Shown here one piece after another: positions 32,389-40,839 of a stretch of 51,015 nucleotides of DNA. The translations under genes were made by a program, and so were the position numbers. Source of the stretch: Fibrobacteria bacterium (GTDB lineage: Bacteria > Fibrobacterota > Fibrobacteria > UBA11236). Under the pieces are notes generated by a model that had not been told where the DNA came from, did no database searches, and saw only the letters and a program-made list of their open reading frames with translations. The number at the start of each line of letters is the position of its first letter. Positions within the stretch are counted from its first letter, which is position 1. The DNA lies in assembly GCA_041746255.1 (NCBI GenBank), contig JBGTHM010000035.1:1-51015 (forward strand). The letters run 5' to 3'.

Positions 32389-33231
32389 TCAGCGTTGACC
32401 TGGAAAAGCAGCGGGAACGAAACGGCGCGAAAGGGGATCGAGTTCGGCATAGGATTGCATCCAAAAGATCGCAGCCTTATCTCCTTGCATTCCGGCAGCC
32501 AAAAGCATAGCCTCCAGTACAGAAACCGGGTGCGCGGCCAAGAGTTTTTCCACATCGGGCCAACCCGGAGCCGAGCGCGCTATGATGCGGCGCGCGGCTT
32601 GCCGGTTCGCGAGCGATGCATCCGAAAGCGCAAAGAACAGCCGCCGCCAGTCGGAAACCCTGTCCTGTTCGCCCAAGGCCCAGAGTCTTTGGTGGAGTTC
32701 CGGTCCGGAGGTTTTTTCGATGCCCTTCAGAAGCAGGGGAATGTGGCTTTGGTTAGGATAGGCGCCCAGGCTGCGCACGGCATTGCGGCGCACCTCTTCG
32801 TTGTTAGAATCCAGGTACTCGCGCGCCACCGAGGCGAACGCGGTATCTCCCAAACGGGATCCGATATACAGCAATTGCGATTTGACGCTGTCGGGAACTT
32901 CCGGTAATCCCTTCCGTAAAAACTCGCGAGGCGCCACGTTTTTCCCGGAATCGGAAATCGCCGCGAAGAGTTCCCGGACATAATGGCTTTGACGCGCGGT
33001 TTGGTTGACCAGCCTATAGTTCAACAAATAAGCGAGGGTGGAAGTATCGGATTCGATAAGCGCGTGGCGGCAGGAATCCCGCAGGATAGAAAATCGTGGT
33101 TCCCCAGTGGCTGCGACGATGAACAGCGAGTCAAAGCGGGTAAAAGCAGGCATTCCTTGAGCCGGGGCCGACGAGAAGACTATCCCGATAAGCAGCAGGG
33201 AAGGAAGGATGCGAAGAGCAGTCAGTCTCAT
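32389..33231 (-). CDS. Exported HEAT-like repeat protein
   Basis: Likely start MRLTAL with signal peptide; LDSNNEEVRRNAVRSLG and LSDASLANRQAARR HEAT-like units. Confidence 0.65.
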   Translation of the reverse strand: MRLTALRILPSLLLIGIVFSSAPAQGMPAFTRFDSLFIVAATGEPRFSILRDSCRHALIESDTSTLAYLLNYRLVNQTARQSHYVRELFAAISDSGKNVAPREFLRKGLPEVPDSVKSQLLYIGSRLGDTAFASVAREYLDSNNEEVRRNAVRSLGAYPNQSHIPLLLKGIEKTSGPELHQRLWALGEQDRVSDWRRLFFALSDASLANRQAARRIIARSAPGWPDVEKLLAAHPVSVLEAMLLAAGMQGDKAAIFWMQSYAELDPLSRRFVPAAFPGQR

Positions 33232-33244
33232 AAAGGTCGCTTTG

Positions 33245-35104
33245 TCAGTGGGATGGGGAACCGGCGGGTTGGCCCCGGCCACGTCTGTCCAGCCCTAACC
33301 CGTTTCCCTTGCTTTTACCGTCGAAGGCGCGCCAGCCCCTTCCATTGGCAAAACCACCTGAATAGTGATCGTCGCCATGGCCGTCGAAGAAAAACCCGAA
33401 GCTGCCCCGATCGCGTCGTTGGTCGGCATGACCCAGGGTCATCGACGGATTGAGACCCAGATAAAAGTCGTTGCCGGTCCCATCGAAAAGCAGGCCGATA
33501 CCGTTGGCGCTGCCTGCTCCCAGACTCATATCGGTAGCGACATAGGTGTCGCTTCCTTCTCCGTCATATAAAAGGCCCAAGGCCAAATCGTGGCCGCAAC
33601 CCTGGCTCACTCCTTTGGAAAACCGGTGGTCATCACCTCTCTCGTCCCAGGAAATACCCACCGCCATATGCACACCCGCGCCTTGGGCATATTGAAAAGC
33701 CTGATAGCGATCATTTCCGGCCTCGTCCAGCAATAAACCCAGAGAATACCAATAGGCCGATCCTTGTCCATAGATATCGCTCACATAAGTATCGTTACCC
33801 TCCTGGTCCCACAGCACCGCCACGCCACCGGAATAGTGGGGCCGGAATCCGGTGGAAAATCCCTGGGACATACTGAGATTGCGATCCCGGTAACGTAAAT
33901 CATCTAAAAAAGTAGGGCGCACGACGTATTGATCCGATCCTTTACCGTCGCGTAAAAAGCCCATGCCCCGGGTCGAGGAAGCGCCCTGGCTGAGCAGGCT
34001 CGCGCTGTAGAGATCGTTTCCGGTTTCGTCTTCCAGCATGCCCAACCCGAAAAACCCGAAACCCTGCGTTCCCAGGCGAGCGTGGTATTGGTTGTTGCCG
34101 GCCGCATTGTAGAAATGGGAATAGCCGAACAGCGAGGAACCGAAGGCGAAGTTACGCCCCAGATAAGTGTCGTCGCCCCCCATATCAAAGGCCAGCAGCA
34201 TTCCCATATGACCCGGCCCTTGCGGCAGACTGTCGTCGCTCACATAGCGATCGCGGCCCTGCATATCGATAAGGATGGCGATGTCGCCCGGTCGGGCCTC
34301 ATCGGAAAAAACATATTCATCATCGCCGCCCACGTCGATATACAATCCCCTGCGCACGACATGCTTGTCCGGGCCCGGTCCACCCAAGGTGACGGGGCCG
34401 ATAGGGGTATTTTCCAGGCCTTCGAACCATTGCGTTCCCTCGCGGCGCGTTTTTTCCACTAACCTACGCTGTAAGGCAAATGCCCTTTGTCCCGCCTTGG
34501 CCAACAAACCGAGATCGAGCCGTTGCGCGGTGGTGAAAACCCAGTGTTGCCGCTTTTCCAGATAAAGCCGCTCCAAATCCGAATCGATGGGGGAACGCGT
34601 CGTATCCACTTCATCCATCAAGAGCAGCTCGCCCGCTCTCCGCAAGAGCGAATCGCGCTCCGAGGGTTCAAGGGGTGAGAGAAAGGCCTGCATATCGCGA
34701 TGAACTTGATCGAGTTCACGCAGCAAGGCGTCCTTATCCAAATCCAGTAGCCCGGAGGTATCTCCTGACCCTTTCGAATCCGCATCCACCACCACGTCAA
34801 GCATATTCCATAATCCGGCCGGTGATGTTGCGAAGGGAAGGGTGTCACTTGCGGCGGAGGGCCGCAAGGCGCGCACTTCATCAATGATTTCCGCCGCACG
34901 TAGCGGTTGATGCAATAGATTTTGCAGGCGAGATAACCGGAAGGCATCCGGAGATTTGTCCCTTACGCGCAAATCCAAATCCGCTTGCGAGACGCCGTTG
35001 GGTTTGAGAAGATAATGGTACAAGGTGTCGAGTGGAGAAGCGGAAAACCCCGCCCAGGAGCAGAATGCGCATAAAGCGGCAATTTTGACCACGAGCGGGG
35101 ACAT
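33245..35104 (-). CDS. Exported protein with 12 tandem G/D-rich repeats (probable beta-solenoid)
   Basis: Signal peptide from MSPLVV. Repeats of hhhhDxxGxDxY followed by [QS]GxG-like segments across about 33360-34355. Confidence 0.7.
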   Translation of the reverse strand: MSPLVVKIAALCAFCSWAGFSASPLDTLYHYLLKPNGVSQADLDLRVRDKSPDAFRLSRLQNLLHQPLRAAEIIDEVRALRPSAASDTLPFATSPAGLWNMLDVVVDADSKGSGDTSGLLDLDKDALLRELDQVHRDMQAFLSPLEPSERDSLLRRAGELLLMDEVDTTRSPIDSDLERLYLEKRQHWVFTTAQRLDLGLLAKAGQRAFALQRRLVEKTRREGTQWFEGLENTPIGPVTLGGPGPDKHVVRRGLYIDVGGDDEYVFSDEARPGDIAILIDMQGRDRYVSDDSLPQGPGHMGMLLAFDMGGDDTYLGRNFAFGSSLFGYSHFYNAAGNNQYHARLGTQGFGFFGLGMLEDETGNDLYSASLLSQGASSTRGMGFLRDGKGSDQYVVRPTFLDDLRYRDRNLSMSQGFSTGFRPHYSGGVAVLWDQEGNDTYVSDIYGQGSAYWYSLGLLLDEAGNDRYQAFQYAQGAGVHMAVGISWDERGDDHRFSKGVSQGCGHDLALGLLYDGEGSDTYVATDMSLGAGSANGIGLLFDGTGNDFYLGLNPSMTLGHADQRRDRGSFGFFFDGHGDDHYSGGFANGRGWRAFDGKSKGNGLGLDRRGRGQPAGSPSH

Positions 35105-35157
35105 AACGCCAAGGTACCAAATTTCCACGGCCTTTCCTTTTTCCTATTTTGCCAGAC

Positions 35158-36229: not shown

Positions 36230-36895
36230 ATGTTCAACACTGAAAATTGGCAGGATTATCGTGGAAAAGGCGAAGGCGTGCTGATCCACCTGGATTCCAC
36301 CAAGCTTCACGAGCTGCCTGTCCGGGATCCTCTCGACGCCGAGGGCAATCCGGTGCTCGAGCCCAATTATGAAACCAAAACTTACGGATTCATGCAATGC
36401 GTGAACGCCAAGACTCTGCTGTCCACGTTTCGGAACCGGCGACGTTACCTGCTTTTCGGTACCCGTTATCAAGGCAAGTTGGAAGCCTACCTCGGTCGCT
36501 TCCTCGTCATCGGCTATATGCGTCTGGACAAATCGCTGGAAGTGCGCAAGCGATATTCTCATCGATGGGTCGAGCAGCCGGCGGGTTCCAAAAGCCCCGA
36601 ATGGCTCGAAATGGAACAGTGCTACGCTTTTTACAGCGAGGACATGAATTTTTACGCGCCGGAAGACGCGTATGAATTAAGCGAAGCGATCATGAAGGAC
36701 TGGGGGTACAAAGGTAAGATTACCAAACAGATGAAGCTGACTTTTCCGGAGGATCGGCTTCAGCAAATTCTTGCGCACTTCCATGGCAAAGTTTCCTGCA
36801 ATGAGAAATACTTGGAGGCATTGAAGGAAGTGGCAGCGGACCTCGAAGCCAACCGGGCCAAGGAGCAGCAGGTCCAGAATCAGCCCGAGTGGTAG
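36230..36895 (+). CDS. Conserved-looking hypothetical cytoplasmic protein
   Basis: RBS AGAGGG; LPVRDP...EPNYETKTYGFMQC...YLLFGTRY...VIGYM. Confidence 0.75.
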   Translation: MFNTENWQDYRGKGEGVLIHLDSTKLHELPVRDPLDAEGNPVLEPNYETKTYGFMQCVNAKTLLSTFRNRRRYLLFGTRYQGKLEAYLGRFLVIGYMRLDKSLEVRKRYSHRWVEQPAGSKSPEWLEMEQCYAFYSEDMNFYAPEDAYELSEAIMKDWGYKGKITKQMKLTFPEDRLQQILAHFHGKVSCNEKYLEALKEVAADLEANRAKEQQVQNQPEW

Positions 36896-36901
36896 TTCGA
36901 A

Positions 36902-37282
36902 CTATTGCTTGCCGTGCTTCTGCAGCAGGGCGCCTACCCGCGCGAGCAGCTCCTCTTTTCCGAAGGGCTTGGTGATGTAGTCTTCCGCCTTCATCACGTG
37001 CAGGCCCACCATCAAATCCACGGACTTGTTGTTGCTCGTTAGAAAAGCGATGGGGGTTTTCGCCAGCGCCGGCTGTTCCCGTAACTCGCGAAATACGTCG
37101 AAGCCGTCTACATTGGGCATGACTACGTCCAACAGGATGAGATCAGGATCCAATTCCAATGCGGTCGAGACCGCCGAGTCCGGATCCGTCACCACCGTCA
37201 CCTCGTGGTTTCCAATGCCCAGCACCAGCTTAACCAACTCGGCCATATCTTTTTCGTCGTCGATGACAAGCACCTTAGCCAT
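36902..37282 (-). CDS. Single-domain response regulator (receiver)
   Basis: VLVIDDE, DLILLDVVMP (phosphoacceptor Asp), FLTS and YITKPF. Confidence 0.93.
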   Translation of the reverse strand: MAKVLVIDDEKDMAELVKLVLGIGNHEVTVVTDPDSAVSTALELDPDLILLDVVMPNVDGFDVFRELREQPALAKTPIAFLTSNNKSVDLMVGLHVMKAEDYITKPFGKEELLARVGALLQKHGKQ

Positions 37283-37285
37283 GCT

Positions 37286-37594
37286 TCAGCCCTTTCTCAA
37301 TTCGCGGGGGAGCCATTCCCAATAGAACATAGTCACCGCGAAGCCCGCCGCCAAAGCGGTAAAATTCAGAATCAGGGCGGTAGCGCCCAGATAAGGCGAA
37401 AAATCCAATTCCATTCCCGCCAAGTTCAAGACCAGCGACACCGCCAATAGGGCGCACGAGAGGTAATAGACGCGATAAACGGGTTTTTTCTTTTGGGCCA
37501 TGCCGAAAATCCGGCTCAGGGATCCCAGCACGATAAACGCGGTTATGAAAGTCATATGCCAGATAACCAAGGTGACGACGGTAATGGATATCAT
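37286..37594 (-). CDS. Small membrane protein (about 3 TM)
   Basis: 102 aa, hydrophobic, with a basic loop (AQKKKPVYR) and C-terminal YWEWL; 3-bp gap to the next gene. Confidence 0.75.
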   Translation of the reverse strand: MISITVVTLVIWHMTFITAFIVLGSLSRIFGMAQKKKPVYRVYYLSCALLAVSLVLNLAGMELDFSPYLGATALILNFTALAAGFAVTMFYWEWLPRELRKG

Positions 37595-37603
37595 CGCTTC
37601 ACC

Positions 37604-37891
37604 CTACCCTATGCTCATCATGGTCCGGTAAAGATGGAAGGAGAGGACTGAAAAGGCGATGCCCCCTATGCAAATCAAAGCCGCGGAAAAATGGAAGGGG
37701 ATACCCGGAACCAGACCGCTTTGCAAAACCAGGCCGGCCACCAGCAAGGCCAGACTGGCGGTCATGATGCGGTTGTCGGGTCCTTTCTTGAACTTCATGC
37801 GGTAGAATTTGGCGATAAGGGACAAATACCGGCCCACTCCCGCGAAGAGCAGAGCCAGGGCAATCATTCCGGCTGATTCGAAAAAAGCCAT
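37604..37891 (-). CDS. Small membrane protein (about 3 TM)
   Basis: 95 aa, hydrophobic, with a basic loop (MKFKKGPDNR); RBS AGGGAG; 9-bp gap to the next gene. Confidence 0.75.
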   Translation of the reverse strand: MAFFESAGMIALALLFAGVGRYLSLIAKFYRMKFKKGPDNRIMTASLALLVAGLVLQSGLVPGIPFHFSAALICIGGIAFSVLSFHLYRTMMSIG

Positions 37892-37898
37892 CTCCCTA

Positions 37899-38681
37899 TC
37901 ACTTCCCTTTTTTCAAGGATGCCGGCGCGAAAACCTCGAGGAAGGTGTCGGCATCGGTTTTGACCGGCGAGCCGCTCATCACGCCTTGGCGGCCGACGAA
38001 TTTCTCCATGATTTCGATTCCGTTGGAGGTGATGTTGAACTGGCGGATATCTTTGGCATGTTGGCTACCCCTCATCTTGAGAACCAGAATTGCCTTGGAG
38101 ATGGAGCTGTCGATTTCGACATAGCGCAATATGAAAAAGTTGTCGGCGATGAATGGAGCCTGCGAAAGGCTGGAGGTGTCGCCCAGCAGGTTGTTGTTCT
38201 CACGCAGAAAAAGAGCCGTGATGTCCTCGCGCTTCAGGCTGTTGATGAAAGTGTATTCCATCTCGCGAAGCTGGTCCTCTTCTTCGGCGGCGTATTCGAA
38301 ATGCGTCAGCGAATCGACCAGGCAGCGTTTGATGCCCATTTCGTCGATGAGGGTTTCCAAGGTTCCGCCCAATTCTTCCATTTCACGCAAAACCCCTTCG
38401 GGTTCGGAAAAAATGATTTTCAACATGCCCTCTTCTTCATACTTGCGGAGATCCCATCCGAAGTTGAGGGCGTCGTGGTAATACTGGCTGGGAAATTCCT
38501 CGAAAGTGATGATGAGGCCGGGCTCTTGAAATCGCTCGATGCCGTTCACGATAAACTGGATTCCCAGCGTGGTCTTACCGGTGCCGGGAGCACCTTCGAT
38601 TACGGTGGCGCTTCCGCGCACGACGCCTCCGTCTATCATCTTGTCCAGTGCAGTTATGCCAAATGGGCTTCTTTCCAGCAT
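37899..38681 (-). CDS. Single-domain KaiC/RAD55-family ATPase
   Basis: FGITALDKMIDGG, Walker A GAPGTGKT, ITFEE, Walker B LVDSLT, IAD and LKMRGSQH...FNITSNGI. Confidence 0.9.
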   Translation of the reverse strand: MLERSPFGITALDKMIDGGVVRGSATVIEGAPGTGKTTLGIQFIVNGIERFQEPGLIITFEEFPSQYYHDALNFGWDLRKYEEEGMLKIIFSEPEGVLREMEELGGTLETLIDEMGIKRCLVDSLTHFEYAAEEEDQLREMEYTFINSLKREDITALFLRENNNLLGDTSSLSQAPFIADNFFILRYVEIDSSISKAILVLKMRGSQHAKDIRQFNITSNGIEIMEKFVGRQGVMSGSPVKTDADTFLEVFAPASLKKGK

Positions 38682-38784
38682 GTACCGTCCTATTTGAAGT
38701 CCGCTTTATTGTCGGATAATTCGCCGCCCGAATCCATCCTTGTTATCCTCAAAGGCAAGATGGCACATTCAGGGTCCATCGAAC

Positions 38785-39720
38785 TTATTTCTTGAGCAGG
38801 GCGAGCAACACCGCTTTTTGCGCATGCAGACGATTTTCCGCTTCATCGAAACAAACGCAAGCCGGCGATTCCATTACGGCATCGGTAATTTCCTCCCCGC
38901 GATGGGCGGGCAGGCAATGCGACACCAGACAGCCTTTCGGCGCCTTGGAAAGCAATTCCTCGTTAACTTGAAAGGCCTGGAAGTGATCTTTTTTTTCGGC
39001 TTCCCGGCCCTCTTCGCCCATGCTCACCCACACATCGGTATAAATCAAATCCGCATTGGCCACGGCCGCAACCGGCTCATGCACAGTGCGATAGGACGTT
39101 CCTTTTTTTTCAAAGAGCCGGTTGATTTCCTTTTGAATGGCTTCGGGCTGTTCATAACCCCGAGGACAGGCCAAGGTGAAATTCATGCCGAGGTGCCCCG
39201 CCATGGCGGCGATGGAATTCGCAACATTGTTGCCGTCGCCTACGAAAACCAGATTAAGCCCTTCCAGGCGCTTTTTATGCTCCAGAAGGGTTTGCCCCAG
39301 CGCCAAGGCTTGGCAGGGATGGTATTTATCGGTCAGGGCGTTGATAACGGGGACGGAAGCATAACGGGCCAAATCTTCCACCATTTGATGCGAAAAGGTG
39401 CGGGCCACGATGACATCCACCCATCTCGAAAGCGCGTGAGCCGCGTCCGCAACCGTTTCCCGCTTCCCAAGGGCGATTTGACTCGGTGAAAGATAAATGG
39501 CCGCCCCCCCTAATTGCACCATGGCCACTTCGAAGGTGACGCGGGTGCGCAGGCTGGGCTTTTCGAAAATCAGAGCGGCGCTGCGGCCTTGTAATTCTTG
39601 CGAAGGCCCCATTTTTTGAAATTTCGCCTTCACTTCCACCGCCGAGTGAAGTAGCTCCAGGATGCCGGCAGCATCCATTTCCATTAAGGTGACCAGGTGT
39701 TTTGGATTTGCTTTCGCCAT
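38785..39720 (-). CDS. argF: Ornithine carbamoyltransferase
   Basis: FEKPSLRTRVTFE, HPCQAL, GDGNNV, TDVWVSMG, HCLPAHRG and EAENRLH. Confidence 0.96.
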   Translation of the reverse strand: MAKANPKHLVTLMEMDAAGILELLHSAVEVKAKFQKMGPSQELQGRSAALIFEKPSLRTRVTFEVAMVQLGGAAIYLSPSQIALGKRETVADAAHALSRWVDVIVARTFSHQMVEDLARYASVPVINALTDKYHPCQALALGQTLLEHKKRLEGLNLVFVGDGNNVANSIAAMAGHLGMNFTLACPRGYEQPEAIQKEINRLFEKKGTSYRTVHEPVAAVANADLIYTDVWVSMGEEGREAEKKDHFQAFQVNEELLSKAPKGCLVSHCLPAHRGEEITDAVMESPACVCFDEAENRLHAQKAVLLALLKK

Positions 39721-39841
39721 AGCGGATGGCCGTCCCGTAGCTGTTCCGGTTATTTCAAGGATGTTCTGGGAAGAGTAGCTATAATCCCCATGACATTAAA
39801 TGTTAAATTTAACGTCGTACGTCCACCCAAGGGGATACTTT

Positions 39842-40693
39842 TTGCTTCAGGCTCACTGTCCCGCCAAAATCAACCTGTTCCTCGAAGTGCAGGGCAAAAG
39901 AGCCGATGGCATGCACAATTTGGGAACCCTGTTCCAAAGCTTGGAAATTGGAGACGACTTGACGGTCGAGCCCGCGGTGGGGATCACTCTGATGTGCAAT
40001 GAAAAAATAACTCCCGACCCCGATGATAATCTGGTGGTGAGGGCCGCACGGCTCGTAAAAGAGAGCTATTCGCCTAAGGTGTCAGACGAGCAGGGTGCGC
40101 GCTTCACCTTGACCAAGCGCCTCCCCATGGGCGCGGGCCTGGGGGGCGGAAGTTCCAATGCCGCCGCCGCCCTGCGATTGTGTAATCAACTTTGGCGTTT
40201 GCAATTGACCGACGACGAGCTGTTCCCCATGGCGGCGAAATTAGGGGCGGATGTTCCTTTTTTTTTAATGCAAGGGTGCTTTTTCGGGGAAGGCAAGGGT
40301 GAAATCCTGAAACCCGCTCCCGAACCCTTTCCATTCCATGTGGTGGTGGGAACACCTTTTTGCAGCGTGGAAACCGCATGGGCCTACCAGCAACTCCCTC
40401 CCAAAACCGAATTTTCCTGGCCCCGGTTCAAGGCTTTATACATGACCCATAGTGATAATCCCGGGTTTTATCGTATGCTTCGGAACGATTTTGAAGTTCC
40501 CATGCGGTCCCGCCATCCCGAAATAGAGCGCCTTTTCGAAGCTATGGAGGCACTGAATCCCGTGAAATCCTTGTTGTCCGGCAGTGGCGCCAGCGTATTC
40601 GCTCTTTTTGAGGACCAGGCAGCGGCTCAGCGCTGCTTGGAAGGCATTTCCCCCCTATGCCGCTTCGCCTGCCTAACCCATTTTCAGTTATAA
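39842..40693 (+). CDS. ispE: 4-diphosphocytidyl-2-C-methyl-D-erythritol kinase
   Basis: PAKINLFL, LPMGAGLGGGSSNAA, GADVPFF, NDFE and LSGSGAS. TTG 39842 follows AAGGGG; an alternative start is ATG 39800. Confidence 0.93.
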   Translation: MLQAHCPAKINLFLEVQGKRADGMHNLGTLFQSLEIGDDLTVEPAVGITLMCNEKITPDPDDNLVVRAARLVKESYSPKVSDEQGARFTLTKRLPMGAGLGGGSSNAAAALRLCNQLWRLQLTDDELFPMAAKLGADVPFFLMQGCFFGEGKGEILKPAPEPFPFHVVVGTPFCSVETAWAYQQLPPKTEFSWPRFKALYMTHSDNPGFYRMLRNDFEVPMRSRHPEIERLFEAMEALNPVKSLLSGSGASVFALFEDQAAAQRCLEGISPLCRFACLTHFQL

Positions 40694-40764: not shown

Positions 40765-40839
40765 TGGGGCGTCGTCAAGTGGTAAGACAACGGTTTTTGG
40801 AACCGTCTACCGTAGGTTCGAATCCTACCGCCCCAACCA
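40765..40839 (+). tRNA. tRNA-Gln (anticodon TTG)
   Basis: Acceptor TGGGGCG/CGCCCCA plus A-CCA; anticodon arm ACGGT-TTTTGGA-ACCGT; T-arm GTAGG-TTCGAAT-CCTAC. Confidence 0.97.

Follow-up and report, generated by a model that had tools for sequence, protein, structure and literature searches.

The role of KaiC proteins outside the circadian clock is an open question in bacteria. Archaeal KaiC-like ATPases have reportedly been put forward as signalling hubs, a proposal attributed to Makarova et al. in mBio in 2017, and to our knowledge the only bacterial non-clock KaiC modules studied experimentally so far are cytosolic KaiC-kinase-receiver sets. KaiC homologues of Pseudomonas bind a neighbouring kinase and a single-domain receiver in two-hybrid and pull-down assays (Terrettaz et al., 10.1101/2022.01.26.477890). 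A KaiC-like fold is also that of the N-terminal domain of BcsE, a protein with a degenerate receiver that the small protein BcsF brings to the membrane (PMC7439463). Here we analyse a 51,015-nucleotide stretch of DNA from a Fibrobacteria bacterium (assembly GCA_041746255.1, contig JBGTHM010000035.1, positions 1 to 51,015 of the forward strand; hereafter the window), in which four adjacent genes encode a KaiC-like ATPase, two three-helix transmembrane (TM) proteins, TM1 and TM2, and a stand-alone receiver. A first-pass annotation of the same DNA had interpreted this locus as a candidate kinase-less signalling system. We find that the four genes are one conserved cassette, kept or lost as a block across Fibrobacterota, and we put at about even the chance that their products form one device, in which a KaiC-type ATPase acts as a switch at the inner membrane and is connected to a two-component phosphorelay.

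Results

The four genes are conserved as a unit

The KaiC-like, TM1, TM2 and receiver open reading frames (ORFs) are co-oriented on the minus strand and separated by gaps of only 7, 9 and 3 bp in the ORF list, exactly as first described. A public gene call places the start of TM1 at Met9 (87 aa), by which the first gap would become 31 bp; the longer form of 95 aa is supported because the orthologues have start codons aligned with it. TM1 is present in 28 of 61 relatives, and a TM2 profile detected the protein in 110 of 296 Fibrobacterota genomes. By family, TM2 was found in 20/31 genomes of f1, 4/6 of f2, 1/1 of f3, 12/12 of f4, 4/4 of f11, 1/1 of f12, 40/46 of f13, 8/8 of f14, 7/8 of f15, 4/4 of f16, 7/7 of f17 and 1/2 of f18, and in none of nine genomes of other families. 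In f5, TM2 is absent (0/151 genomes), as is any match to the KaiC of the window (0/41 sampled).

Gene order was examined in 48 of the 110 TM2-bearing genomes (20 of f1, 8 of f1-f4, and 20 of f4 and f11-f18; one locus is from the unpublished genome G021). The order KaiC-TM1-TM2-receiver occurs in all 48 loci (20/20, 8/8 and 20/20), and the KaiC-TM1-TM2 core also occurs in Anaerolineae (Chloroflexota), so the synteny comparison suggested with the first-pass annotation came out in favour of a conserved unit. A cassette gene is absent only at contig ends, except for TM1 in locus L105, which the profile did not detect. The junctions are tight throughout, with many overlaps of 1 or 4 bp: the median gap is 3 bp between KaiC and TM1 (range -4 to 28; at most 25 bp in 49 of 50 loci), 5 bp between TM1 and TM2 (range -4 to 15; at most 25 bp in all 51 loci) and 3 bp between TM2 and the receiver (range -1 to 96; at most 25 bp in 44 of 45 loci). 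A cultured carrier also exists, the cellulolytic strain ANBcel5 (Chitinispirillaceae) described in PMC11700989; the protein named P0234 is 100% identical to the KaiC of its locus, L094.

Reduced relatives lack the cassette altogether. Five genomes without TM1 and TM2 (G005, G008, G010, G014 and G032; 98-100% complete) also lack a KaiC orthologue, their sole KaiC match being a double-domain KaiC of 36% in G005. All five keep argF, the ornithine carbamoyltransferase gene that lies upstream of the cassette, and in G005, G008 and G010 the gene right after argF is the convergent one for a 221-aa protein that borders the cassette downstream in the window. Because argF abuts the 221-aa gene in these three genomes, the four genes are missing exactly as a unit.

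Such an arrangement might be phylogenetic inertia, that is, gene order without shared function, or it might mark an anti-phage defence island. The surrounding housekeeping genes are indeed syntenic too, and PADLOC gave a weak match of KaiC to mad8 (E 8e-6), covering residues 6-123 only. However, the cassette persists in two classes with differing flanks (downstream lies uvrA or a second receiver in some lineages, and f2 has other genes), and its core recurs in the second phylum. Identity within f1 is ~83% for KaiC and ~80% for the receiver, above the ~66% of argF, and ~50% for the TM proteins. There are no mobile-element genes, and in PADLOC TM1 and TM2 have no match and the receiver has two weak ones, a result which, with the partial mad8 match, does not describe a known defence system. 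We therefore disfavour both explanations and consider them very improbable.

The position of argF raises another possibility, namely that the cassette is dedicated to arginine or nitrogen metabolism and tunes the activity or expression of a co-transcribed ornithine carbamoyltransferase. In the window, argF is the first gene in the direction of transcription of the cassette and is separated from the KaiC-like gene downstream of it by 103 bp. Of the 28 loci of the window's class, 27 have argF as the gene right before KaiC, and the remaining one, L022, is cut before reaching argF; among the 20 loci L091-L110, argF holds this place in 17 (L092 is cut, and L093 and L101 have no argF). The ORF ends show it overlapping the KaiC start by 4-8 bp in L094, L095, L099 and L106. 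Against this stand its unchanged presence where the cassette is absent, the cassettes without argF in L093 and L101, both on the Chitinivibrionia side, the Anaerolineae unit, which is not near argF, and the lack of any further arginine gene in the operon. Because argF is kept where the cassette is missing, we regard it as a neighbour or co-transcript and not as a core part, and a dedicated arginine regulator seems to us quite unlikely.

The ATPase and the receiver

The KaiC-like protein has one PF06745 domain (residues 7-227; 180 bits against a cut-off of 26.6), and its closest solved relative is the KaiC structure 8zn5 (E 2e-73), whose CI and CII halves score equally against the single domain, at 125 bits each. 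When 42 orthologues from two phyla are aligned, the Walker A motif GTGKT, the Glu pair E61/E62, the Walker B residue D123 and S124 are invariant, as are R186, K202, R204, G205 and H208, of which K202, R204 and G205 belong to the KMRG motif. The initial description of a single KaiC domain with Walker A and B, the EE pair and KMRG thus stands. The same is true of the stretch said to replace the clock phosphosites: on alignment to the solved KaiC, SHISTITD of clock CII corresponds to SQAPFIAD, with P and F in place of S and T at the residue numbers that we take to be those of the phosphosites. The stretch is closer in look to that of CI (EEFVADN). The protein ends in a conserved tail of the form SGSP...DxF..xF, in which an SGSP-like segment, common with clock CII, is followed by F247 and F251, both invariant in the 42 orthologues.

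Although its names in public annotations are 'RAD55 family ATPase' or 'circadian clock protein KaiC', the protein does not have the features of a clock KaiC. It has one domain in 260 aa and not tandem CI and CII, it lacks the Ser/Thr autophosphorylation sites, and its scores against the two clock-KaiC equivalog models of NCBIfam are below cut-off (178 versus 408 bits and 142 versus 546 bits). Neither kaiB nor kaiA was found among the neighbours of the cassette, where no search was aimed at KaiA.

The receiver matches PF00072 with 87.7 bits (cut-off 30.2) and has no second domain. Its pocket has the acidic residues, phospho-acceptor Asp, Thr and Lys of this family (D9, D52, T82 and K105), all invariant in 30 orthologues. 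A family-specific segment in alpha4, DxMVGLH(V/M)M, precedes the usual DYITKPF, and D89, V92 and G93 within it are invariant in the same set. The closest NCBIfam models are the receivers of OmpR-type regulators, all far under their cut-offs. The receiver is accordingly what the first description made of it, a domain with its phosphoacceptor Asp and a distinctive segment and without an output domain. To judge from these residues, ATPase and receiver both appear to be catalytically competent.

In 14 of 17 loci of families f11-f18 (among L092-L110), the cassette receiver is succeeded directly by another stand-alone receiver, 136-152 aa long, and then by uvrA. According to the ORF lists the second receiver overlaps the first by a few codons, and Pfam confirmed it in five loci.

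TM1 and TM2 form a family of small membrane proteins

The two membrane proteins had been noted to resemble each other. Pairwise BLASTP gives a weak match (E 2e-4), and hhalign with narrow profiles a probability of 7%; with broad profiles (42 rows for TM1 and 130 for TM2) hhalign gives 93.8% (E 1.7e-7 over 98 columns). This value supersedes that of the narrow profiles, and by it TM1 and TM2 are paralogs. Neither had a match at E<=0.01 in Pfam or NCBIfam, and none of 14 TM2-family members scanned against Pfam reached the threshold, with scattered sub-threshold matches at E<=1; membership of a known unrelated family, which would have spoken against the early interpretation, was therefore not found. 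TM1 is single-copy in the genome and fell into three clusters in a word-indexed protein search, and a search of 1.84 billion proteins with the TM2 profile matched 166 cluster representatives (E<=0.001). The latter search placed no restriction on length, and among the matches listed (the best 150 of 166), which are 63-137 aa long, no TM2 fused to a larger domain was found.

An AlphaFold2 (AF2) model of TM2 (pLDDT 95.9) predicts helices at residues 4-33, 41-62, 67-92 and 94-101 and had no match in the PDB at E<=0.001 with Foldseek. Its best fold matches, three-helix subunits such as NuoK, Vtc1 and MrpF, are nonspecific (E>0.5). By the positive-inside rule, both proteins probably have the basic loop after helix 1 and the C terminus in the cytoplasm and the N terminus outside. 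TM1 and TM2 would consequently lie parallel, not antiparallel, because the same sides are cytoplasmic in both.

Conservation follows this predicted topology. In TM1, the conserved motifs are IAKFYRxKF after helix 1 and LYRTMM at the C terminus, with conserved positions I26, F29, Y30, L87 and M91. In TM2, they are LSRxxGxAxKxxPxY at the end of helix 1 and in the loop, and YWxWLxxE in the C-terminal helix. Among 130 TM2 sequences, only L26, S27, G31, Y91, W92, W94, L95 and E98 are invariant or nearly so, and in the model all eight map to the cytoplasmic end of helix 1 or to the C-terminal helix. As far as sequences can tell, TM1 and TM2 belong to an unnamed family of three-helix proteins of about 100 residues, with the conserved residues all predicted to face the cytoplasm. 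This is the pattern expected of a docking surface, not that of a pore or a periplasmic sensor.

The TM pair in a second phylum

Many of the TM2-like representatives are not of the Fibrobacterota type; the clusters nearest to them were mostly Chloroflexota (Atlas), and a profile scan of metagenome contigs yielded 80 loci (L111-L190), which we refer to Anaerolineae. The closest proteins to the SecA of L144 are labelled Anaerolineae or Chloroflexi, with up to 84% identity. The block in L145 (JAESGX010000012.1; 770 kb, 61% GC around the locus) is of the Anaerolineae type and sits in a metagenome-assembled genome that a public record labels Pleurocapsa minor, a cyanobacterial label that we consider doubtful and that could reflect a binning error.

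In 72 of the 80 loci, the TM2-like gene is preceded immediately by a TM1-like gene, and most of the others are cut. The commonest arrangement, in 54 loci, is secA, a gene for a 125-aa protein, TM1, TM2, adenosine deaminase (ada) and a metallo-beta-lactamase (MBL) hydrolase. In seven loci, a gene for a single-domain KaiC, 49-52% identical to that of the window, stands between the 125-aa gene and TM1; 15 loci are cut and four have other arrangements. In each of the four KaiC-bearing loci whose flank is long enough, two of which (L189 and L190) are near-identical, TM2 is followed by a kinase of about 860 aa with the architecture GAF-GAF-HisKA-HATPase; a kinase core occurs in none of the 54 loci without KaiC. 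A receiver like that of the window was found in none of the 80 loci. Wherever a KaiC of this type is joined to the TM pair it brings a two-component part, the receiver in Fibrobacterota and the GAF histidine kinase in Anaerolineae.

The 125-aa protein, found in 63 of the 80 loci, is predicted to be an ArsR/MarR-like winged helix (AF2 pLDDT 87.6), with Foldseek matches to CadC, ArsR and SmtB at probability 1.0 and E values from 2.5e-4. Its sequence matches are sub-threshold only and it has no Pfam family; the query used found no match to it in the window's genome. These loci show the TM pair as an autonomous, older unit with a conserved, putatively cytoplasmic face.

The autonomy of the pair invites a reading in which two units share one operon, a cytosolic KaiC with its receiver or kinase and an independent TM1/TM2 without contact to it, KaiC having been inserted into a TM operon. 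Most Anaerolineae loci do have the pair by itself, the KaiC and kinase genes have the look of insertions, one on each side of it, into an otherwise constant context of secA, winged helix, TM1, TM2, ada and MBL gene, and the KaiC modules of Pseudomonas need no membrane protein (10.1101/2022.01.26.477890). Yet in both phyla TM1 always has KaiC as its immediate upstream neighbour, the gaps in 50 loci ranging from -4 to 28 bp, and the four genes are lost as one block. The conserved KaiC tail is present in the TM-linked copies and not in the TM-less paralog of the window's genome (see below), and a KaiC before the TM pair with a kinase or receiver after it would be an odd outcome of independent insertion. 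On balance, we think it unlikely that the operon holds two unconnected units.

Alternatively, the cassette could be an ATP-driven membrane machine, with TM1 and TM2 (six helices per pair) as a conduit or a lipid- or protein-handling unit, a RecA-type ring as the source of power and the receiver as the on-switch. Such a machine could move a compound tied to the neighbouring enzymes: ornithine, citrulline or arginine in Fibrobacterota and adenosine in Anaerolineae. An intact ATPase does adjoin integral membrane proteins here, the tight translational coupling suggests a stoichiometric complex, metabolic neighbours occur in both phyla (argF and adenosine deaminase), and the pair follows an ArsR-like regulator in Anaerolineae, regulators of this type often controlling transporters. 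However, no residue in the transmembrane helices is conserved across the family, where conservation is confined to the cytoplasmic face, and there is no match to a transporter fold or family. The pair mostly occurs without an ATPase (54 of 80 loci), the presence of KaiC tracks the histidine kinase and not a transport gene, and argF stays where the cassette is lost. We consider a transport or handling machine improbable, to about the same degree as two unconnected units, and return below to a switch that feeds a phosphorelay.

Histidine kinases and other KaiC copies in the genome

A tblastn search with three kinase cores covered the 51-kb window and 107 Fibrobacterota loci (676,615 bases, many loci overlapping); it found no kinase core, and both positive controls were matched. 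Pfam searches of the flanks likewise found no kinase in the window, in five loci or in the immediate neighbours of 12 more (30 of 82 listed ORFs scanned). The Fibrobacterota receiver thus has no kinase gene beside it, as a classical two-component pair would. At least 37 kinase cores are present elsewhere in the genome; no orthologue of the Anaerolineae GAF kinase was found, the matches to it in the window's genome spanning the kinase core only. The earlier observation that kaiA, kaiB and a histidine kinase are missing nearby agrees with the tblastn search of the window and with the location of KaiB on another contig (no search was aimed at KaiA). The label 'kinase-less' holds for the Fibrobacterota locus; it does not hold for the system, because the GAF kinase adjoins KaiC-TM1-TM2 in Anaerolineae.

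The single KaiB of the genome (PF07689, 94 bits) is encoded directly after a double-domain kaiC (C106:24780-26785), and the organism thus has a conventional KaiBC pair as well. A further single-domain KaiC of 248 aa on contig C54 (locus L003:1483-2229) is 45% identical to the KaiC of the window, has no membrane neighbours and stops before the Phe-containing tail. On contig C117 (19551-21571), a KaiC fragment at the contig end adjoins a histidine-kinase core.

Neighbouring features

The cassette and its two borders are listed in Table 1. The convergent 221-aa protein has no match in Pfam, NCBIfam or PADLOC and is conserved within family f1 at 56-81% identity. Between 36000 and 41000, the sole Rfam match is a tRNA (RF00005, 66.8 bits) at 40765-40836 on the plus strand, between ispE and the L25 gene. 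Farther downstream of the cassette, at 33245-35128 on the minus strand, a 627-aa protein without a Pfam match has about a dozen evenly spaced G-[GNDS]-D-x-[YF] repeats, and its gene overlaps the start of that of a HEAT-repeat protein (32389-33282).

Table 1. The cassette and its flanking genes in the window
Feature	Position	Strand	Family evidence
Ornithine carbamoyltransferase, argF type	38785..39720	-	PF02729 and PF00185 match
KaiC-like RecA-superfamily ATPase, single domain, 260 aa	37899..38681	-	PF06745, E 5e-53
TM1, three-helix membrane protein, 95 aa	37604..37891	-	No Pfam or NCBIfam family
TM2, paralog of TM1, 102 aa	37286..37594	-	No known family; AF2 model
Stand-alone receiver, CheY-like architecture, 126 aa	36902..37282	-	PF00072, E 7.7e-25
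Convergent 221-aa gene, downstream border of the cassette and not part of it	36230..36895	+	No known family

Discussion

The conserved order, the joint loss of the four genes and the recurrence of the KaiC-TM1-TM2 core in a second phylum are consistent with a membrane-held KaiC switch connected to a phosphorelay, and we can sketch how it might work. TM1 and TM2 would form a hetero-oligomeric anchor with the N termini out and the C termini in, the cytoplasmic face of which would recruit the KaiC-like ring. The candidate docking element on KaiC is the C-terminal DxFxxxF tail, a likely contact because it is invariant in the TM-linked KaiCs and missing from the TM-less paralog. The state of the ring would be set by ATP binding and hydrolysis and not by autophosphorylation. 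The receiver would be phosphorylated by a kinase encoded elsewhere and may bind the complex through its conserved alpha4 face, either modulating the ATPase or being sequestered by it, as a phosphate sink or source. The external loops of the TM proteins are only about 4-10 residues long; therefore, any input through the pair would come from within the membrane or from the cytoplasm.

Several observations weigh against this proposal. Much of the synteny falls in a well-conserved housekeeping region (pth, rplY, ispE and murI), and related genomes are not independent observations in the synteny counts. The counts of promoters and terminators across 36700-39950 are not above those of shuffled sequence, and no output domain, DNA-binding protein or target gene was found in the Fibrobacterota cassette. 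The 45%-identical KaiC paralog on C54 has no TM partner, and a small KaiC tree of 25 rows with long outgroup branches does not separate the TM-linked, Anaerolineae and TM-less KaiCs into clades of their own. Two further points go beyond the first-pass annotation: argF heads the operon in most lineages, a position for which a signalling model has no explanation, and 54 of the 80 Anaerolineae loci have the TM pair but no KaiC. As the pair occurs without KaiC, it has a function of its own and need not anchor KaiC.

The early interpretation is nevertheless supported in part, with a conserved unit, a paralogous TM pair of no known family, and a seemingly competent ATPase and receiver; the wording 'kinase-less' has to be restricted to the Fibrobacterota locus. 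We can tentatively go further and speculate, with less confidence than we place in the device itself, that TM1/TM2 are a new and widespread small heteromeric membrane adaptor, the cytoplasmic face of which docks either an ArsR-like protein alone or KaiC together with a kinase or receiver, the cassette then acting as a membrane-gated timer or switch that is built on an ATPase and feeds into a phosphorelay. If true, this would be a signalling architecture distinct from classical two-component, extracytoplasmic function (ECF) sigma and chemotaxis systems. That many Anaerolineae carry the TM pair after an ArsR-like protein points to a wider adaptor family, which would merit definition. To what is known of non-clock KaiC in bacteria, the cassette adds a dedicated membrane component of a family unnamed in databases, and, as a minimal, unfused system of four proteins with about 580 residues in total, it could be rebuilt in E. 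coli or in vitro. Should it turn out to be no more than an operon that is conserved locally and has a modest regulatory effect, what is gained is annotation only: a new family of small membrane proteins and a KaiC subgroup with a name.

A literature search found no paper coupling KaiC with Fibrobacterota or, among the matches listed, with Fibrobacter, Chitinivibrio or Chitinispirillum, and no description of such a membrane pair was found in the searchable literature on KaiC-like proteins, membranes and signal transduction. The statement made at first that no bacterial example had been characterised nevertheless needs qualifying, in view of the systems compared below.

Among archaeal proteins, the KaiC-like ATPases and ArlH/FlaH of the archaellum are likewise single-domain proteins that act through partners and are not clocks. 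The best single-domain NCBIfam models for the ATPase are the archaeal KaiC_arch_3 and thermo_KaiC_1, both far below cut-off (141 versus 249 bits for KaiC_arch_3). Scores against the ArlH/FlaH models are 38 and 55 bits versus cut-offs of 215 and 194, and there are no ArlI/ArlJ neighbours, which does not make the protein an archaellum ATPase. The cassette further differs from the archaeal systems in being bacterial and in having different membrane partners. Compared with cyanobacterial KaiC, the ATPase has one domain, P and F in place of S and T, no adjacent KaiA or KaiB, and a membrane pair. CikA carries GAF domains, as does the partner kinase in Anaerolineae. Cyanobacterial KaiC has its output via SasA and CikA to RpaA (10.1101/2022.01.26.477890); it is of the same ATPase family as the protein described here, as the E value of the latter against 8zn5 indicates, and the SGSP segment is common with CII.

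For the inferred tethering, BcsE/BcsF is the nearest worked example, combining KaiC/RecA-like and receiver modules with a small membrane protein that is encoded immediately downstream and brings them to the inner membrane. BcsE is one fusion with degenerate ATPase, receiver and GGDEF domains, the last of which binds cyclic di-GMP (PMC7439463), whereas the cassette has separate, seemingly active proteins and no GGDEF domain. Its putative anchor is a pair of three-helix paralogs, unlike BcsF. No match to the BcsE (GIL) family was found in Pfam and no bcs or cellulose genes among the neighbours, and the ATPase motifs are intact; the ATPase is thus not a BcsE.

The cassette also resembles the Pseudomonas modules, whose KaiC proteins have two domains, compared with one in Fibrobacterota. 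By the criterion used for those modules, a kinase virtually always within two genes of KaiC, the Fibrobacterota loci differ, and the Anaerolineae loci agree in all four cases with flank. The Fibrobacterota locus is also unlike them in having two small membrane proteins between KaiC and the receiver and no kinase. The Pseudomonas KaiCs are reported to be phosphorylated (10.1101/2022.01.26.477890), and the Fibrobacterota KaiC has the canonical phosphosites replaced. Both settings share a non-clock KaiC encoded with two-component parts that include a receiver without an output domain. In Pseudomonas, physical contacts of KaiC with the kinase and with the receiver were demonstrated and modulation of phosphotransfer was the role proposed (10.1101/2022.01.26.477890). 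We read the cassette as a variant of known modules of KaiC-like and two-component proteins, and rate the membrane pair as its genuinely new component.

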